Below are positions 2,476-42,385 of a DNA stretch of 64,000 nt, in pieces (the stretch's first letter is position 1; each line of letters starts with the position of its first letter). This stretch comes from Candidatus Levyibacteriota bacterium. GTDB lineage: Bacteria > Patescibacteriota > Microgenomatia > Levybacterales > UBA12049. The notes under the pieces are model-generated. The model made no database searches and had not been told where the DNA came from. It worked only from the letters and a program-made list of their open reading frames with translations. The position numbers and the translations under genes are program-made. The stretch covers positions 80,689 through 144,688 of the forward strand of contig JACPLG010000008.1 of assembly GCA_016186625.1 (NCBI GenBank). Direction: 5' to 3'.

Positions 2476-3510
2476 TTAAAATTGCTCGAGAAATTCTAAT
2501 TTATTTGAATAGAGTAAGCGCAAATCATCAATTTCGATCCCTTCTTTCATCATTAGAACTCGCTCAACCCCCCAACCGAATGCGAATCCGTTGTGTTTTT
2601 CCGGATCAATCTTGCAGTTTCTTAGAACTTGAGGATGAACCATCCCCGCTCCTCCCAATTCAAGCCAGCCTTCTTTGCAGAGCTTACAGCCCCGGCCTAA
2701 ACAAACACCGCATGTTACATCCACTTCAAAAGATGGTTCGGTAAACTCAAAATGATAAGGTCTTATTCTTGATTTTCGTTCTTCTCCAAAATATGTTTTA
2801 ACAAAATATTCTAGTACTCCCTTAAGGTTTGAGATCGATAAACTAGTATTAACAGCTAATCCTTCAAACTGGTGAAACATTGGGGTATGCGAAACATCAG
2901 ACTGTCTCCTGTAACACCTAGCGATATTTAGCATTTTAATAGGAAGCTTTCCTTTTTCCATCTCTCTAATTTGACCATTTGATGTGTGTGGAGTTAAAAG
3001 CATTGGCCCATATTTTGGATGAGGGGGTGCATCTATGAAAAAGGTTTCCCAGTCATCCCTAGCAGGATGATTTTCCGAAAAGTTGAGAGCTCCGAAGGGG
3101 TACCAGTCCCATTCCACTTCAGGATAGCGGACTCGCCCAAATCCTATTTTTTCAAAAATTGATGTTATTTCCCAAATTGCCTGAGTGATGAGATGTAAGT
3201 GTCCAAGGGGAGGCCTTATTCCCGGGTCGGTTACATCAATTTTTTTGATTCTTTTCCCTAATTCTTGATTCTTAATTCTTACTTCTTGTTCGATAATGGC
3301 ACTTTCAATTGATTCCTTAACTTCATTTGCTAAGATTCCCACCTCTCTTCTTTTCTCAGGATTTATTTTTGGAAGGCGTTTTATAACAAGAGTTAACTGG
3401 CCGCTTTTTCCCAAAAATTGCAGTTTAATATGTTCAAGTTCGTCCGGGTCCTTAGCGTCCAAAATAAGTGACACCGCATTATTTTTGATATTGATGAGTT
3501 CATTTTCCAT
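2476..3510 (-). CDS. pheS: Phenylalanine--tRNA ligase alpha subunit
   Basis: 344 aa; class II aaRS motifs (FRPSYFPFTEPS-like EFTEPSFEVDV, GWAFGLGLERL-like GFAFGWGVERV). ATG start. Confidence 0.9.
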   Translation of the reverse strand: MENELINIKNNAVSLILDAKDPDELEHIKLQFLGKSGQLTLVIKRLPKINPEKRREVGILANEVKESIESAIIEQEVRIKNQELGKRIKKIDVTDPGIRPPLGHLHLITQAIWEITSIFEKIGFGRVRYPEVEWDWYPFGALNFSENHPARDDWETFFIDAPPHPKYGPMLLTPHTSNGQIREMEKGKLPIKMLNIARCYRRQSDVSHTPMFHQFEGLAVNTSLSISNLKGVLEYFVKTYFGEERKSRIRPYHFEFTEPSFEVDVTCGVCLGRGCKLCKEGWLELGGAGMVHPQVLRNCKIDPEKHNGFAFGWGVERVLMMKEGIEIDDLRLLYSNKLEFLEQF

Positions 3511-18653: not shown

Positions 18654-18677
18654 CCTTCCCACATGGAATGTGGGAAT
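18654..18677. repeat. REP-1 copy (CCTTCCCACATGGAATGTGGGAA)
   Basis: Palindromic hairpin of the REP-1 family. Confidence 0.65.
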
Positions 18678-31097: not shown

Positions 31098-31120
31098 CCT
31101 TCCCACATGGAAAGTGGGAA
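31098..31120. repeat. REP-1 copy flanking RAYT-1
   Basis: CCTTCCCACATGGAAAGTGGGAA. Confidence 0.7.
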
Positions 31121-31128
31121 CACAGAAT

Positions 31129-31776
31129 TCAGTCATCGATGTCGATTAGAGAATCAAAAAGCGCCGGGTCAATATCATTAGTTTCCTCGACAAAACTTTG
31201 ATAGTCTCTTTCTGGATTCGATCGCGCAAAATAAGAAAGAATAAAACCTGTATCACAAAAAACATGTTTTTCCCCATAAATATAGTTACAATAAGACGAA
31301 TATGGGTAAACTCTACATTCACACATGGAAAGTGGGAAAGGGTTTCGGTGAATATATTTTGACAGTTGCAGAAGATGCCCATCGCTTTCAATATACTTTG
31401 CTTTAAAACTTCCTTGAAACAGTGGTCCTACTCTATCGTACTTAGTATTGAAATACCTTGTATAACTGTCTGATAATTTTCTTAGAAAGTGTGTAATGCC
31501 ATTATCGGTTAATTGTTTGACTAGGAGATGAAAATGGTTAGGCATCAAGCAAAAACAAAAAATACTTACTAGTTCTGTTTGGCTGTCTACTTTCTTAAGT
31601 TTAACGATTCCCCTTCTGTAGTCAGATAGTTTCATGGGCTGAGGAGATTTTCGATAAAAGTCCAGAGTTTCTAAAAATCTAAGATAGTCCCACCTATCCA
31701 AAAAGATATCTCTTTTTTCCACACCTCTATTATAAATGTGGAAGAATCCGTCGGTGATAAAAGGAGGATTCTTCAT
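31129..31776 (-). CDS. REP-associated tyrosine transposase (RAYT; IS200/IS605 TnpA-like HUH Y1 transposase), family 1
   Basis: HIYNRGV, MPNHFHLLV (HUH), YIHRNP (catalytic Tyr); flanked by REP-1 copies on both sides. Confidence 0.8.
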   Translation of the reverse strand: MKNPPFITDGFFHIYNRGVEKRDIFLDRWDYLRFLETLDFYRKSPQPMKLSDYRRGIVKLKKVDSQTELVSIFCFCLMPNHFHLLVKQLTDNGITHFLRKLSDSYTRYFNTKYDRVGPLFQGSFKAKYIESDGHLLQLSKYIHRNPFPLSMCECRVYPYSSYCNYIYGEKHVFCDTGFILSYFARSNPERDYQSFVEETNDIDPALFDSLIDIDD

Positions 31777-32411: not shown

Positions 32412-32466
32412 AATTAATCCGCAATATAAATCATCTATAGCTATAAGTCAAGAAAGCAGAATCTGA

Positions 32467-32598
32467 GCGGGTGAAGGGAATCCCATTCGACTTCGCTCAG
32501 GGTAAACTTCTCATCCCTTCACGCTGGATTCCACCAGCCCACCGCGAATGGTGAGCAATTCGTCATGAGCTCATTGTCGAATGACTTGTCGAATCCAG
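32467..32598. repeat. MITE-like element at the tRNA-Gly 3' end, bounded by a partial duplicate of the tRNA 3' end (GAGCGGGTGAAGGGAATCCC)
   Basis: Intact tRNA 3' AGAGCGGGTGAAGGGAATCGAACCC at 32598-32621 and partial copy at 32467-32488; between them ATTCGAC...GTCGAATGACTTGTCGAA. Confidence 0.5.
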
Positions 32599-32669
32599 AG
32601 CGGGTGAAGGGAATCGAACCCTCGTATCCACTTTGGAAAAGTGGTGTTCTGCCATTGAACTACACCCGC
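32599..32669 (-). tRNA. tRNA-Gly (anticodon TCC)
   Basis: GCGGGTGTAGTTCAATGGCAGAACACCACTTTTCCAAAGTGGATACGAGGGTTCGATTCCCTTCACCCGCT. Confidence 0.8.
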
Positions 32670-34730: not shown

Positions 34731-34772
34731 GGCCCTGTAGCTCAACGGATAGACCTGCCCGCTAAGCAGCAT
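34731..34772 (+). pseudogene. tRNA 5'-fragment (acceptor + D-arm + degenerate anticodon arm)
   Basis: GGCCCTGTAGCTCAACGGATAGACCTGCCCGCTAAGCAGCATG; no T-arm. Confidence 0.35.
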
Positions 34773-34845
34773 GCGCCCGTAGCTCAACGGATAGAGCAAG
34801 ACGGTTCTAACGTCAAGGTTGGGGGTTCGATTCCCTCCGGGCGTG
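34773..34845 (+). tRNA. tRNA-Arg (anticodon TCT)
   Basis: GCGCCCGTAGCTCAACGGATAGAGCAAGACGGTTCTAACGTCAAGGTTGGGGGTTCGATTCCCTCCGGGCGTG. Confidence 0.75.
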
Positions 34846-34855
34846 CAAGTATGGT

Positions 34856-34911
34856 AGGCAGGGCGAGTGCGTTCTAAGCACCAGGTTGGGGGTTCGATTC
34901 CCTGCCTGCCG
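34856..34911 (+). pseudogene. D-arm-less partial tRNA-Arg(TCT) copy
   Basis: GGCAGGG-CGAGTGCGTTCTAAGCAC-CAGGTTGGGGGTTCGATTCCCTGCCTGCC; same anticodon loop GTTCTAA as the neighbouring tRNA. Confidence 0.4.
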
Positions 34912-35072
34912 GCAGGCAGGCCTCCGGGGTCGCACTTCGGCATCAGTCCGGCAAACTCATGACAAGAGCTCAGTGCAAGCTGAGTTTGACGAAGCGACCT
35001 GAGGGATGAGAAGTTTACCCTGAGTACTTCGGTTTACTCAGCATAAACGAAGTCGAAGGGATTCCCTCCAGG
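34912..35072. repeat. MITE-like repeat with partial tRNA 3' duplicate (GATTCCCTCCAGGGTC)
   Basis: cgaagtcgaagggattccctccagggtc; CCTGAG and TCGAA motifs as in the other copies. Confidence 0.35.
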
Positions 35073-35073
35073 G

Positions 35074-35541
35074 TCACAGATGTCTTCCCCTGAGGTAAGC
35101 TTCGGCAGCCTCTCTCATTGAGTGTTCAGGGAATTCTCCTGTACGATTATGCGCAAACCGTTGATAAATACTGCCACGTAAAAGCTCGAGTTTTTCGGTT
35201 GTTAAAAATCTGAAGTCATTTGCTAAAGCAAATCCCTCTCCAACAACTTCTATTACTTTTTCCATAGGTACATCGTGAGACGCCCGAACATTATCTGGAT
35301 GAATTCTATCAGCCACAGATTTAATTGCTTGCAGCTTTGATTGATCTTCCAATAAAGCTTCTCGTAACTCTAAAGGATTTTCACCAGTTTCTCTGACTAT
35401 AAGGGCTATAACTGCTCCTTGCGCAGTAACGGAAGCAGGACAAGCCATGCTAGCTCTAATGAAATAAAAATAGGCTATTTCCGCCATACTCCTTGGGAAG
35501 CCTTCACTCATGTCAGTTTGCGCAGTTTCAGCTGTACTCAC
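35074..35541 (-). CDS. Hypothetical protein
   Basis: 155 aa, GC-richer; no motif. Confidence 0.35.
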   Translation of the reverse strand: MSTAETAQTDMSEGFPRSMAEIAYFYFIRASMACPASVTAQGAVIALIVRETGENPLELREALLEDQSKLQAIKSVADRIHPDNVRASHDVPMEKVIEVVGEGFALANDFRFLTTEKLELLRGSIYQRFAHNRTGEFPEHSMREAAEAYLRGRHL

Positions 35542-37847: not shown

Positions 37848-37903
37848 TTTACACCTTTACACCCCGGGTGTGGATTTACCTTGACACCCCAGGGATTTAG
37901 ATT
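37848..37903. repeat. REP-2 copy flanking RAYT-2
   Basis: CTTTACACCTTTACACCCCGGGTGTGGATTTACCTTGACACCCCAGGGA. Confidence 0.65.
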
Positions 37904-37917
37904 TAAAGTTAGTTTAT

Positions 37918-38580
37918 ATGCCAAGAAGGAGATTTGTTTTAGCTACCAATGAAACTTACCACATATATAACAGGTCTGTTGCTAAGGAGTCGATATTTTC
38001 TTCAGCTACTTGTTTAAACAAGATAATCGAGATATCAGACTATTATCGATACCATCAAGAGCTTAGGCTGTCTAAGTTTAAAAAATTACCCGTTGATCAG
38101 AAAAAGAGCTATTTAGATTCGATTAAGAACAGGGAGAAACTTGTAGACATCTATTCATTTGCTTTTATGCCTAATCACTACCATTTCTTATTGAAACAAC
38201 TGGTCGATAATGGAATCGTAAATTTTATTTCTAATTTTCAAAATAGTTTTGCTAAATACTTTAATATAAAAAATGATCGAAACGGTGCTTTATTTCTGAA
38301 CCCCTTTAAAGGAAAAAGAATAGAGTCTGAAGACCAGTTTGTTCATGTCTCAAGATATATTCACCTAAATCCTGTCACTTCATACTTGGTTGAGTTTAAA
38401 GACTTACCAGATTATCCTTGGACTTCTTTTAGAATCTACCATTACGGTTTAAATTTATTTGTAAATACTAAGCTGATACTGGAGAGTTTTAAATCCATAA
38501 AGAGTTATTACAATTTTGTGGAAGATCAAGTAGATTATCAAAGAAGTCTTGCTTTAATAAAGGATTTAGTTCTTGAGTGA
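37918..38580 (+). CDS. REP-associated tyrosine transposase (RAYT), family 2
   Basis: HIYNRSV, MPNHYHFLL (HUH), YIHLNP (Tyr); flanked by inverted REP-2 copies. Confidence 0.8.
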   Translation: MPRRRFVLATNETYHIYNRSVAKESIFSSATCLNKIIEISDYYRYHQELRLSKFKKLPVDQKKSYLDSIKNREKLVDIYSFAFMPNHYHFLLKQLVDNGIVNFISNFQNSFAKYFNIKNDRNGALFLNPFKGKRIESEDQFVHVSRYIHLNPVTSYLVEFKDLPDYPWTSFRIYHYGLNLFVNTKLILESFKSIKSYYNFVEDQVDYQRSLALIKDLVLE

Positions 38581-39392: not shown

Positions 39393-39467
39393 GGTGGATG
39401 TAGCTCAGTGGTAGAGCTCCTGGTTGTGGTCCAGGTGGCCGCGGGTTCGATCCCCGTCATCCACCCA
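39393..39467 (+). tRNA. tRNA-His (anticodon GTG) with G(-1)
   Basis: gGTGGATGTAGCTCAGTGGTAGAGCTCCTGGTTGTGGTCCAGGTGGCCGCGGGTTCGATCCCCGTCATCCACCCA. Confidence 0.8.
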
Positions 39468-39898
39468 TTCGACTCACTTCGTTCGCTCATGGCTGTAAGC
39501 CGGAGTCGAATGTCCTGAGTTCATCGAAGGACAAAATGTCTTTTTTCATTTACATTCTCCGTAGCTCATCCAATCAACTATATATTGGACAAACGAATAA
39601 TTTTGAAAATCGGACAAAGCAACATATTGCAAAAGATTGTAAAGCAGCGAAATTTACTAAAGATCATGAAGACTTCAAGCCCGTTTATAAAGAGGAGTAC
39701 CCTACAAGATTAGAAGCAATGAGAAGAGAAGCACAGATTAAAAAATGGTCAAGAGCAAAAAAAGAAGCGCTTATTGCAGGAAATTTGAAAGAACTTAAAA
39801 ATTTAAGCAAAAAGAAATAGTAAGTGAGATCATCGAGCCTGAGCCTGAGGTTCACTTCAGAGTCGAAGACCTGTCGAACCATCCCCGTCATCCACCCA
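39468..39898 (+). mobile_element. Minimal tRNA-integrated cassette: GIY-YIG nuclease gene bounded by a 16-bp direct repeat of the tRNA-His 3' end and ATTCGAC.../...GTCGAACC termini
   Basis: CCCCGTCATCCACCCA at 39453-39468 and again at 39883-39898; left end ATTCGACTCACTTCGTTCGCTCA, right end GAGTCGAAGACCTGTCGAACCAT. Confidence 0.55.
39536..39820 (+). CDS. GIY-YIG nuclease-domain protein (UPF0213/YhbQ-like)
   Basis: FFIYILRSSSNQLYIGQTNNFENRTKQH matches the GIY-YIG core. Confidence 0.7.
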   Translation: MSFFIYILRSSSNQLYIGQTNNFENRTKQHIAKDCKAAKFTKDHEDFKPVYKEEYPTRLEAMRREAQIKKWSRAKKEALIAGNLKELKNLSKKK

Positions 39899-41224: not shown

Positions 41225-42385
41225 CTACATTAAACTGAGGAGGTTGGGCCTTATTCCAAATGTTGAATAAAGATCGTTGAGCGTCATTTCGGGATGTTTT
41301 TTACGCCGAGACTCCGACTCAGAAAGTATTTTACGCATTGAACTCTCCTCACCCGATATAGCTTCCGCAACTCTGGGCGTAGACATGGATCCATCGATGA
41401 AAGACTGTAAAACACTTTGGACATTCACAAAACCCTCCGACTGCAACCAAACTTCCTCTATCAGGGAGCGAACAATTTTTCTAAGTACGTACGAGTGCCT
41501 CTTATTTCCGGGCATTAACCCTTCTGCTGTTAGCTCATCTATCACGCGACAAAGATTCGCCATGTAATGAGCATCCAAATCAGAGATATGACCAAATGTA
41601 CCCTTGAATTGCTCCGCTAGCTTTCTCCATGGCATCAATGAAAATTTATTTTCACCTGTTAGTGCACGTTCAACCCTGCCCATGCCCAGGCCCACATCAA
41701 ATGCCGTGTGTTCAAAAGGAACTACTGATGTGCCTTCGGAAATTCCATCAATGTCCACAATCCTACCAATCTGCAGACAATCAGATAAGTCTTGATTCTG
41801 ATCATAGCCTTCTGAAGCGAACCACGCGATTACCCCACGCCCGTGCAGGTCCCCTTCTCCAAAGCTCCATTCATGCTTCAATACTTCAGGGTCTTCAATG
41901 ATACGAACCTGATTTGGGTCTAGAGAGGCAGACCTTAGTGCCGACTCTAGAGGATGACCTCCAATTGTAGAGAATATTAGGTTCTTTTTGTTAAGCCCCA
42001 GTGCACTTAACATATCAACAAAATATTCCATTGCCTTATCATGACTCACATTGAAAAGACCGCTGCCAAGCATGTGAAATAATGATGTATAATTTATATC
42101 TACACGAGCAGTGTCAAAAGTGCCGCCAGTTCCACCTAAGCGAAGACATTTTTGTATAAAAGCAAAATTGGAAGGGGTCGTATCACCGGAGAACATCGAT
42201 TTGAACGGAGTGATTGTCGCATTAGTAAACAAAACTGTGGGATCGTCAATGACTAATGGGAAAGAATCGTGCGTCGTAAATCCATTGTCTTGATGATATT
42301 CCAGAAATGAAGATTTTATAGATTCTACTACAGCGACTTCTTTATCTTGATGATATTCCTGAGGTGAAGATTTTATAGATTCCAT
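41225..42385 (-). CDS. Standalone alanyl-tRNA synthetase catalytic-domain paralog (no editing or C-Ala domains)
   Basis: DPTVLFTNATITPFK, IQKCLRLGG...TSLFHMLGSGLFN, DVGLGMGRVERAL, HSYVLRKIVRSL align to AlaRS residues about 1-370 (LLFTNAGMNQFK, CVRAGG...HTFFEMLGNFSFG, DTGMGLERI, RGYVLRRIIRRA). Confidence 0.7.
   Translation of the reverse strand: MESIKSSPQEYHQDKEVAVVESIKSSFLEYHQDNGFTTHDSFPLVIDDPTVLFTNATITPFKSMFSGDTTPSNFAFIQKCLRLGGTGGTFDTARVDINYTSLFHMLGSGLFNVSHDKAMEYFVDMLSALGLNKKNLIFSTIGGHPLESALRSASLDPNQVRIIEDPEVLKHEWSFGEGDLHGRGVIAWFASEGYDQNQDLSDCLQIGRIVDIDGISEGTSVVPFEHTAFDVGLGMGRVERALTGENKFSLMPWRKLAEQFKGTFGHISDLDAHYMANLCRVIDELTAEGLMPGNKRHSYVLRKIVRSLIEEVWLQSEGFVNVQSVLQSFIDGSMSTPRVAEAISGEESSMRKILSESESRRKKHPEMTLNDLYSTFGIRPNLLSLM

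Follow-up and report, generated by a model that had tools for sequence, protein, structure and literature searches.

A stretch of 64,000 nucleotides from a Candidatus Levyibacteriota genome (assembly GCA_016186625.1, contig JACPLG010000008.1, positions 80,689 to 144,688; here called the window, with positions counted from its first letter) carries, directly behind its tRNA-His gene, a cassette of about 0.4 kb that holds a single small gene for a GIY-YIG nuclease and ends in a second copy of the tRNA 3' end. The reading that we favor, with a probability of about one half, is that positions 39468-39898 constitute a selfish, free-standing mini-cassette of the homing type, which replaces the 3' end of its target tRNA gene and displaces the native one. 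Directly supported are the insertion architecture, the linkage of such cassettes to genes for tRNA and transfer-messenger RNA (tmRNA), the covariation of a structured leader, selection on the gene and on the right terminus of the cassette, the existence of derivatives without an open reading frame (ORF), and an empty site in a syntenic relative. The window belongs to a metagenome-assembled genome (MAG) and has a G+C content of 39%; its GIY-YIG and rhomboid proteins are 100% matches of NCBI entries under Candidatus Levybacteria. The parts of the locus are the following, P3 being a hairpin of the leader and L081 one of the related loci:

39393..39467, + strand: tRNA-His(GTG), including G-1 (39393), the discriminator C73 (39465) and the CA that follows it
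39450..39467, + strand: first copy of the direct repeat ATCCCCGTCATCCACCCA, within tRNA-His
39464..39537, + strand: structured leader R1 (cmsearch 78 bits, E=3e-17; fold z=-3.9)
39536..39820, + strand: gene for a GIY-YIG/UPF0213 (YhbQ-like) nuclease of 94 aa, catalytic domain plus Lys-rich tail
39821..39870, + strand: 3' spacer with degenerate P3-like motifs CCTGAGCCTGAGG...GAGTCGAAGAC and no significant fold
39871..39880, + strand: right terminus CTGTCGAACC, its GTCGAA inverted with respect to the left TTCGAC; the same in L081
39881..39898, + strand: second copy of ATCCCCGTCATCCACCCA, the displaced or duplicated 3' end of tRNA-His, tRNA body absent

The tRNA-His gene is called at 39394-39466 by ARAGORN and at 39394-39465 by the Rfam tRNA model (67.5 bits), and the G-1 typical of bacterial tRNA-His stands before it at 39393; this copy is presumably the intact, functional gene. 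The direct repeat of its 3' end, which the sequence-only reading had given as 16 nt recurring 430 bp downstream, is real and somewhat longer, since the two copies agree exactly over 18 nt, from A58 of the T-loop to 2 nt beyond the discriminator, at a distance of 431 nt from start to start. No further match to ATCCCCGTCATCCACCCA was found at up to 2 mismatches, and none of 100 dinucleotide shuffles gave any. Between the copies lie about 430 nt, in which the nuclease gene is the single sizeable ORF and the only one of at least 60 aa on the coding strand, a recombinase gene being absent from the element. The inverted termini of TTCGAC type that had been quoted are also correct: The left terminus, ATTCGACTCAC, follows the tRNA at the junction ...CCCA to TTCGACTCAC, the right one ends in CTGTCGAACC and is joined to ATCCCC, and together they form a 6-bp inverted pair TTCGAC/GTCGAA, of which the left TTCGAC is nearly invariant throughout the cassette family. 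The 3' spacer is dispensable, since it is missing in two relatives (L081 and L123).

The protein matches the Pfam domain GIY-YIG (PF01541, E=2.2e-19) over residues 3-76, the remainder being a Lys-rich tail of 18 aa. A profile built from 28 relatives finds the solved structures PDB 1zg2 (the UPF0213 protein BH0048; E=2.8e-14, or about 3e-14) and 1ywl, with BH0048 and EF2693 as the nearest solved relatives, and the earlier description of one 94-aa YhbQ-like gene between the repeats accordingly seems fair as a label. The alignment of the 28 sequences keeps Y6, Y16, G18, R26 and E65 invariant, residues that we take to have catalytic roles by analogy with I-TevI, while the equivalent of the I-TevI histidine is either H or Q. 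The gene has a dN/dS of 0.03-0.16, which points to strong purifying selection, and the mean column identity of the sampled relatives is 66%. In all, the protein has more than 950 relatives, nearly all of them unnamed or from Patescibacteria; many are found on tiny contigs or close to the end of one, which is typical of repeats. Within the window no other GIY-YIG gene was found. A look-up of the exact window protein gave no record, and the protein has no match in PHROGs.

How widely is this association of a nuclease gene with a tRNA end distributed? Among species-representative genomes a scan detected 80 loci, the 36 closest having at least 48% identity and the other 44 being more distant; linkage was counted when the end of a same-strand tRNA or tmRNA gene lay at most 400 nt upstream of the nuclease gene. 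By this measure 19 of the closest loci are linked, and 9 of the distant ones, many of which come from Firmicutes or archaea; four of these nine carry a taxon label (two Peribacteria, one Parcubacteria and one Flavobacterium MAG). For a random gene in a genome of 1 Mb with about 45 tRNA genes, an upstream tRNA would be expected in roughly 1% of cases, as an estimate. None of 33 viral loci is linked, the relatives on viral contigs being distant only (identity of 44% or less). The relatives in Patescibacteria sit 60-350 nt 3' of the tRNA or tmRNA gene and are co-oriented with it, and where no tRNA was called, a tRNA 3' fragment with its NCCA stands immediately before the leader in most cases. Targets are mostly tRNA-Gln, with His, Asn, Asp, Trp, Tyr, Glu, Met, Leu and Val in addition. 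At four loci the target is tmRNA (L014 at 1936-2500, L033, L042 and L045), and leader and gene there start at the ACCA end of the tmRNA; in L014 a leader-like unit is present twice in tandem. At L023, L031 and L035 there are arrays in which a tRNA is followed by an ORF-less insert, a tRNA fragment and the cassette. Since the His-linked proteins form one clade in the protein tree, while those linked to Gln make up most of the remainder and those linked to Asn, Asp and tmRNA are scattered among them, there appears to be mostly one target per lineage, with occasional switches. The cassettes form a widespread family linked to tRNA and tmRNA genes in bacteria of the candidate phyla radiation (CPR), of which we found no published description. 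A full-text literature search returned nothing on GIY-YIG cassettes linked to tRNA 3' ends, on their leader or on the function of UPF0213; it did surface a remark on transferred GIY-YIG genes (PMC12455944).

The downstream repeat, too, recurs in the family. When a copy of the last 14 nt of the tRNA is sought 3' of the ORF at up to 2 mismatches, it is present in 8 of 32 testable cassettes with four different tRNA identities, and in none of 200 shuffles. The carriers are the four copies of the His lineage, one Asn cassette (L012, with 24-30 nt), two Gln cassettes (L020 and L056) and one Asp cassette (L025). The left boundary of the duplicate lies mostly in or beside the T-loop without being fixed, giving lengths from 14 to about 30 nt. 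At L020 the fragment and the end of the functional tRNA differ in the acceptor arm, which would be expected with one copy of foreign origin and is consistent with co-conversion of the tRNA.

The closest relatives of the window cassette, at L081 (87% aa identity) and at L123/L124 (89%), have the same order of tRNA-His, leader, gene, (C/T)TGTCGAACC and fragment. Only the tRNA and the cassette can be aligned between them and the window (77-88% nt identity), both flanks being unrelated. L081/L082 come from Logan and L123/L124 from ENA, and because these are independent assemblies of other samples with the same architecture, an assembly artefact is unlikely. Between the window and L081 the synonymous sites are saturated (dS ~2.4), and yet the 28 nt of the right end, CTGTCGAACC plus the fragment, are identical; the nearer L123 (dS 0.39) shows three changes in the same 28 nt. 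Ten of these bases are not tRNA sequence and could not be maintained by conversion with the tRNA, so that the right terminus is under selection in at least some copies.

An empty site had been suggested as something to look for at related tRNA-His loci, and the comparison has yielded one. The syntenic locus L089 contains in succession an AI-2E permease, tRNA-Arg(TCT), a gene of 235 aa, a rhomboid gene and tRNA-His; the 235-aa gene stands at the position of a RAYT-like gene (see below), with no Pfam match on record. There the cassette is absent, just 76 nt separate tRNA-His from the next gene, and tRNA-Arg is plain as well. The empty site predicted for the window lineage would read ...CCACCCA joined directly to AATTAAATG. 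Other loci anchored on the rhomboid gene (L085, L086/L087 and L088) have lost synteny and are uninformative for the His site.

Some neighboring observations concern other GIY-YIG genes and fragments at these tRNAs. A mirror arrangement occurs at L083 (2536-2928), where a 5' fragment of tRNA-His with a small hairpin is followed by a different GIY-YIG gene of 80 aa and then by an intact tRNA-His; the same contig has three GIY-YIG genes within 3.3 kb. L089 itself has, at 3441-3498, a 13-nt 5' fragment of tRNA-His with a hairpin and no ORF. The mirror arrangement suggests a second type of cassette that duplicates the tRNA 5' end. L086, from Levybacteria, has at 1916-2391 a GIY-YIG gene of 92 aa that belongs to another subfamily and lies about 120 nt after tRNA-Arg(TCT), with no R1 leader.

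The stretch from the tRNA end to the start codon forms a structured leader, which the sequence-only reading had overlooked together with the ORF-less relatives at two other tRNA genes of the window and the precedent in fungal mitochondria (both discussed below). Its helix P1 pairs 39466-39475 with 39503-39512; within it follow a segment J, TCGCTCATGG, at 39483-39492 and a hairpin P2 at 39491-39501. The third helix, the P3 hairpin GTCCTGAGTTCATCGAAGGAC at 39512-39532, contains a tandem G.A motif and has in its 3' strand the Shine-Dalgarno-like AAGGA (39527-39531), 4 nt before the ATG; because of this position P3 probably hides the ribosome-binding site. Across the family the pattern from tRNA end to start codon is (CCA)TTCGACTCGCT...TCGCTCATGG-hairpin-...GAGTCGAATG-TCCTGAG...CGAAGGA. 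The covariance model R1, built from 12 compact examples, matches about 36 CPR loci, on the + strand and immediately before the GIY-YIG gene, with E values down to 4e-21; reverse-strand scores are far lower, and there is no match at L049-L055, L057-L064 and L066-L080, many of which are from Firmicutes or archaea. In an alignment of 37 sequences P1-P3 are 86% paired, against 21-48% for slid controls, and 12 of the 21 helix pairs show compensatory changes, a level that none of 500 shuffles reached. Already between the window and L081, P1 differs by two compensatory pairs (CATTCGACTC/GAGTCGAATG vs CATTCGATGC/GCATCGAATG). Since G-U pairs are present, the fold would form on the sense strand, either as RNA or as top-strand DNA. 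Among the models of Rfam 15, only those for tRNA and tmRNA match in the window region, at 31-36 kb and in 13 related loci (E up to 0.5-1), with no T-box among them. A hammerhead or K-turn, to which the hairpin CCUGAG...CGAAGG may be likened by eye, was rejected for lack of the CUGAUGA core and of the 3-nt bulge. No terminator-like site lies between tRNA-His and the ORF; a scan for consensus promoter and terminator sites gave none, such a scan being uninformative for CPR promoters.

The leader also has an alternative helix, P0, in which N73-C-C-A and the next base pair with A-U-G-G-N' just 5' of P2. P0 is incompatible with both P1 and P2, and R1 was not fitted to it. Its positions are 93.7% paired, with slid controls at 10-41%, and compensatory changes affect four of its five pairs, giving the variants CCAU/AUGG, CCAC/GUGG, CCCC/GGGG, CCCU/AGGG, CAGU/ACUG and CACU/AGUG; the discriminator pair is G:C in 15 cases, A:U in 5 and G:U in 3. 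The covariation score amounts to 0.234, compared with 0.098 in shuffles, of which none in 500 reached the observed value. Because the covariation extends to loci where CCA is not encoded, the partner of the pairing would be the adjacent sequence in cis, that is, the genomic or precursor sequence. For the same reason we rejected a T-box-like sensing of mature tRNA in trans, as exemplified by the pairs CAGU/ACUG and CACU/AGUG.

Two other tRNA genes of the window carry ORF-less relatives of the cassette. On the - strand, tRNA-Gly(TCC) at 32598-32669 is followed by an insert of 115 nt without an ORF (32483-32597) and then by 18 nt of its 3' end, exactly repeated as GATTCCCTTCACCCGCTC at 32465-32482. 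The insert has a helix at the tRNA end and terminates in CCCTGAGCGAAGTCGAATGG; it is a gene-less miniature counterpart of the His cassette. The tRNA-Arg(TCT) locus at 34731-35077 is more intricate, for an older tRNA-Arg resembling that of L086 appears to lie there in three pieces (34731-34754, 34865-34903 and 35060-35077), its acceptor arms still complementary; the first gap contains a complete newer tRNA-Arg(TCT) (34773-34846) and the second an ORF-less element of about 155 nt with GATGAGAAGTTTACCCTGAG. Both inserts start with a helix at the tRNA end, have the motif GATGAGAAGTTTACCCTGAG in common and end, immediately ahead of the tRNA fragment, in a P3-like CCCTGAG...GAAGTCGAA(T)GG. A related GC-rich palindromic block was also noticed in pheT (345-2411, - strand), where it lies in-frame at about 878-962 with 57% G+C against some 33% around it. 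The block has the motifs TTCGAC, TTCGACAAGTCATTCGAC and GTCCTGAGC...GTCGAAGGAC, corresponds to an extra loop of the phenylalanyl-tRNA synthetase beta subunit in comparison with PDB 2rhq_B, and recalls the palindromic elements of Rickettsia that lie in coding genes.

In mechanistic terms, this situation poses a question: How could a tRNA gene have remained intact while a second copy of its 3' end came to lie behind a nuclease gene? The favored explanation is homing. The nuclease would cut cassette-free tRNA genes in or near the TTCGA that encodes the T-loop, and repair would then copy the cassette from a filled allele, with the tRNA body as left arm and the tRNA 3' fragment as right arm. The tRNA would thereby remain intact, and its old 3' end would persist as the downstream direct repeat. 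Because near-universal tRNA sequence would provide portable homology arms, we propose that the element moves between genomes with unrelated flanks. Expression could come from read-through of the tRNA promoter, with P3 hiding the ribosome-binding site and keeping the nuclease low, and the mutually exclusive P0 and P1 would couple the folding of the leader to the unprocessed tRNA 3' end. Homing of this kind would account for a tRNA that is intact and for the place where the duplicate lies, for flanks that are unrelated, for arrays and ORF-less hitch-hikers, for the selection on the right end and for the acceptor difference at L020.

Several points weigh against homing. About 70% of the cassettes, including most of those at tRNA-Gln, have no recognisable downstream fragment, from which it follows that the duplication has decayed or is not obligatory. 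A catalytic domain of about 76 aa with a basic tail makes up the whole protein, no second, DNA-binding domain being present beyond the Pfam domain and the tail; characterised site-specific homing enzymes of the GIY-YIG type have a separate DNA-binding domain. Finding the site without such a domain, the role of P0 and the fragment-less Gln cassettes are left unexplained by the model, as is the avoidance of self-cleavage, given that the functional tRNA copy keeps an intact T-loop. The right arm of 18 nt is short for RecA-type repair. The sole empty site is that of a distant relative (rhomboid identity 67%), and neither the predicted empty junction nor the right-end junction turned up in exact-pattern scans of metagenomes, so that no polymorphism of filled and empty sites at the strain level was seen. 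UPF0213 proteins of Firmicutes and archaea lack the tRNA linkage, and the very high conservation of the protein across CPR classes would equally fit a gene beneficial to its host. What the sequence-only reading had called a site-specific integration into a tRNA 3' end, perhaps mobilised by the nuclease, can therefore be divided into two parts: The integrase-less insertion at a tRNA 3' end of an element with a single small GIY-YIG gene is upheld by the family linkage, the tandem and nested arrays with tRNA 3' fragments at each boundary, the ORF-less derivatives and L089, whereas mobilisation by the nuclease, or site-specific integration in the sense of an integrase, is conjectural, the repeat being frequently absent and the protein a bare catalytic domain.

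Another reading sees in the cassette a domesticated or relic gene. After an ancient arrival at tRNA loci it would by now be inherited vertically as a gene of the host, transcribed together with the tRNA and encoding, for instance, a repair or structure-specific nuclease. The leader would then be a common kind of structure for cis-regulation or processing, and the 18-nt repeat a scar that has stayed intact by chance. The strong purifying selection and wide conservation of the gene, the one tRNA identity kept per clade and the lack of strain-level polymorphism agree with this, as do the absence of the downstream fragment from most tRNA-Gln cassettes and its condition in L123, where it has 2 substitutions, and in L083, where it has decayed. 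Still, we regard domestication as unlikely, though worth keeping in mind, for more than ten tRNA identities and tmRNA are occupied, tandem or nested arrays and ORF-less derivatives exist, and the cassette is common to genomes with unrelated flanks while the syntenic L089 is without it. Moreover, a dead scar would not persist in the way that the non-tRNA right end CTGTCGAACC has, identical at dS ~2.4, and many matches come from contigs that are very short or break off at the cassette, in the manner of repeats.

A bolder reading would have the element find its target by nucleic-acid pairing, AUGGN' reading N73-CCA and TTCGAC/GTCGAA mimicking the T-loop, and would make it an autonomous element of about 0.4 kb with a domain-only nuclease of 94 aa as its sole protein; this we consider a speculative proposal and rather improbable. 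Less probable still, in our judgement, is that a recombinase acts in trans on a minimal integrative satellite, comparable to a cis-mobilisable element or an integron cassette, in which the GIY-YIG gene is cargo and the tRNA 3' segment between GTCGAA and TTCGAC arms would be the attP site of a tyrosine integrase or Xer protein encoded elsewhere. An identity block running from the T-loop to the tRNA 3' end, as found here, is reportedly the classic footprint of tRNA integrases among their sublocation classes; the joined ends would read GTCGAACC-[18 nt]-TTCGAC, with inverted arms around a core, and tmRNA is another classic integrase target. The element, however, has no recombinase gene, the rest of the window having been covered by a scan of selected ORFs rather than by a full screen. 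On its left side the repeat has no constant limit, its length ranging from 14 to about 30 nt; the arms would stand about 20 nt apart, too far for the core of a tyrosine recombinase, and the integrase would need to recognise more than ten tRNA cores. The GIY-YIG gene and its leader accompany the site invariably, which would be odd for cargo.

Guide-directed transposition of a single strand, following the logic of IS200/IS605 elements, appears very doubtful, even if it is the sole model that gives P0 a role. The AUGGN' beside P2 would pair with the flanking NCCA(+1) some 22 nt upstream and so set the left cleavage point, the catalyst being either the GIY-YIG nuclease or a tyrosine transposase of Y1 type supplied in trans. 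The covariation of this pairing between flank and interior, which includes the discriminator pair and the loci without encoded CCA, speaks in its favor, and the G-U pairs indicate a strand-specific structure. The succession of target, about 20 nt, guide and hairpin in strict strand orientation resembles the left end of IS608, as its geometry is reportedly described. Two transposase-like genes of the appropriate kind are present in the window, and there are related GC-rich TTCGAC elements without ORFs, including the one in-frame in pheT. Against this, IS200/IS605 transposition gives no target duplication and would take the right end to any NCCA, whereas the right-hand fragment always matches the adjacent tRNA here; the right end has no visible counterpart of the guide, and P0 overlaps the covarying P1 and P2 and may thus be an alternative RNA fold. 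The transposase-like genes have different hairpins of their own and one of them is syntenic in L089; further, we know of no GIY-YIG transposase. As for a chance repeat or an assembly artefact, we give it practically no credence: Nothing speaks for it except the metagenome-assembled source, no match came from 100 shuffles, and the same architecture stands in four independent assemblies from other samples, with analogous ones at other tRNAs.

The genes just mentioned resemble those for RAYT proteins, the tyrosine transposases of Y1 type associated with repetitive extragenic palindromes (REPs). They are located at 31129-31776 (- strand) and 37918-38580 (+ strand) and were called from Pfam Y1_Tnp and, below its cutoff, NCBIfam REP_Tyr_transpos. 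The first is flanked by inverted hairpins CCTTCCCACATG..GTGGGAAGG at 31098 and 31807, the second by hairpins of the CACCCCGGGGTG type at 37860 and 38618, and more copies of these motifs occur in the window, for instance at 18654, 9540, 13322, 22180, 52319 and 52827. As both genes bear REP hairpins of their own that are unrelated to the TTCGAC elements, we rejected a RAYT protein as mobiliser of the cassette. Downstream of the cassette, an ORF of 386 aa (41225-42385, - strand) shows a match restricted to the N-terminal catalytic region of class II alanyl-tRNA synthetase (Pfam tRNA-synt_2c, profile positions 2-360 of 552) and may represent a split or truncated form of this enzyme.

Returning to homing as the preferred reading, its closest architectural precedent lies not in integrase islands but in the mobile ORFs of fungal mitochondria with their replacement 3' ends. 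Such ORFs form gene hybrids in atp6 of Allomyces macrogynus and in atp6, atp9, cox2 and nad3 of Glomus; each brings a replacement 3' end and pushes the native one downstream, the ORF in atp9 is of the GIY-YIG type, and in Allomyces the endonuclease has been shown to drive mobility (PMC3630166). Both systems share the order of gene core, replacement 3' end, free-standing endonuclease ORF and displaced native 3' end as a partial duplicate, as well as a target gene that remains functional and a spread between genomes, presumed in the case of the cassette. Unlike the fungal elements, which enter organellar protein genes, the cassette targets bacterial tRNA and tmRNA genes; its duplicate measures 14-30 nt only, its nuclease is a bare catalytic domain of 94 aa, and a leader starts from the NCCA end.

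Another point of comparison is SegB of phages T4 and T6, a free-standing GIY-YIG homing endonuclease in the phage tRNA cluster that cuts within tRNA genes at RAWTSGAAC (PMC13096335). We read this motif as complementary to T-loop DNA (GTTCSAWTY). The likeness thus includes a GIY-YIG enzyme beside tRNA genes, cassette termini that carry the TCGAAC/TTCGAC core of the motif and a duplicate that starts in the T-loop. SegB is larger than 94 aa and differs also in being phage-borne, in not being bound to one tRNA 3' end and in lacking flanking repeats of tRNA fragments and a leader that pairs with NCCA. Prophages, genomic islands and integrative and conjugative elements that enter tRNA or tmRNA genes have in common with the cassette the direct repeat from T-loop to tRNA end, the intact tRNA and the use of tmRNA as a target; the cassette, in contrast, has no integrase, measures about 0.4 kb vs more than 5 kb, and combines a variable repeat boundary with a constant nuclease gene. 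At the left ends of IS200/IS605 elements, similarly, a flanking tetranucleotide pairs and covaries with an internal segment by a hairpin about 20 nt away, orientation is strand-specific and ORF-less palindromic derivatives exist, whereas the cassette has no HUH/Y1 gene, possesses a flanking duplication and has its putative guide overlapping the hairpin stem; the resident RAYT-like genes, for their part, have other REPs. Finally, insertions in rRNA genes of CPR bacteria that encode GIY-YIG proteins and are not introns (PMC11270868) affect stable-RNA genes of the same host group, with the same nuclease family and no intron features, and differ in that the text of that paper makes no mention of tRNA. 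Unusual in the present case are the size, the domain-only nuclease and the NCCA-pairing leader, homing-type cassettes with replacement of the target end and insertions targeting tRNA genes being already known.

The implications depend on which reading holds. If the cassettes are mobile, the tRNA and tmRNA genes of CPR bacteria would be colonised by integrase-free elements ten times below the size of any known tRNA-targeting island. If targeting by pairing were true, this would amount to a guide-assisted, nuclease-driven insertion by possibly the smallest autonomous mobile element in bacteria, with ORF-less derivatives that, in the manner of miniature inverted-repeat transposable elements, insert at further tRNAs and also in-frame within protein-coding genes. 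As a tool, so small a nuclease with a segment for target pairing that looks programmable would be worth testing. The leader presents a new covariation-supported motif, of RNA or single-stranded DNA, whose pairing partner is the NCCA end of the tRNA upstream of it, a logic known to us otherwise from T-box leaders and RNase P. Together with their ORF-less relatives, the cassettes break assemblies, leave CPR genomes with tRNA pseudo-fragments and in-frame insertions, and could mark gene flow. Structures are solved for the UPF0213/YhbQ family and we know of no role assigned to it; the association described here, if true, would give this family its first functional context.

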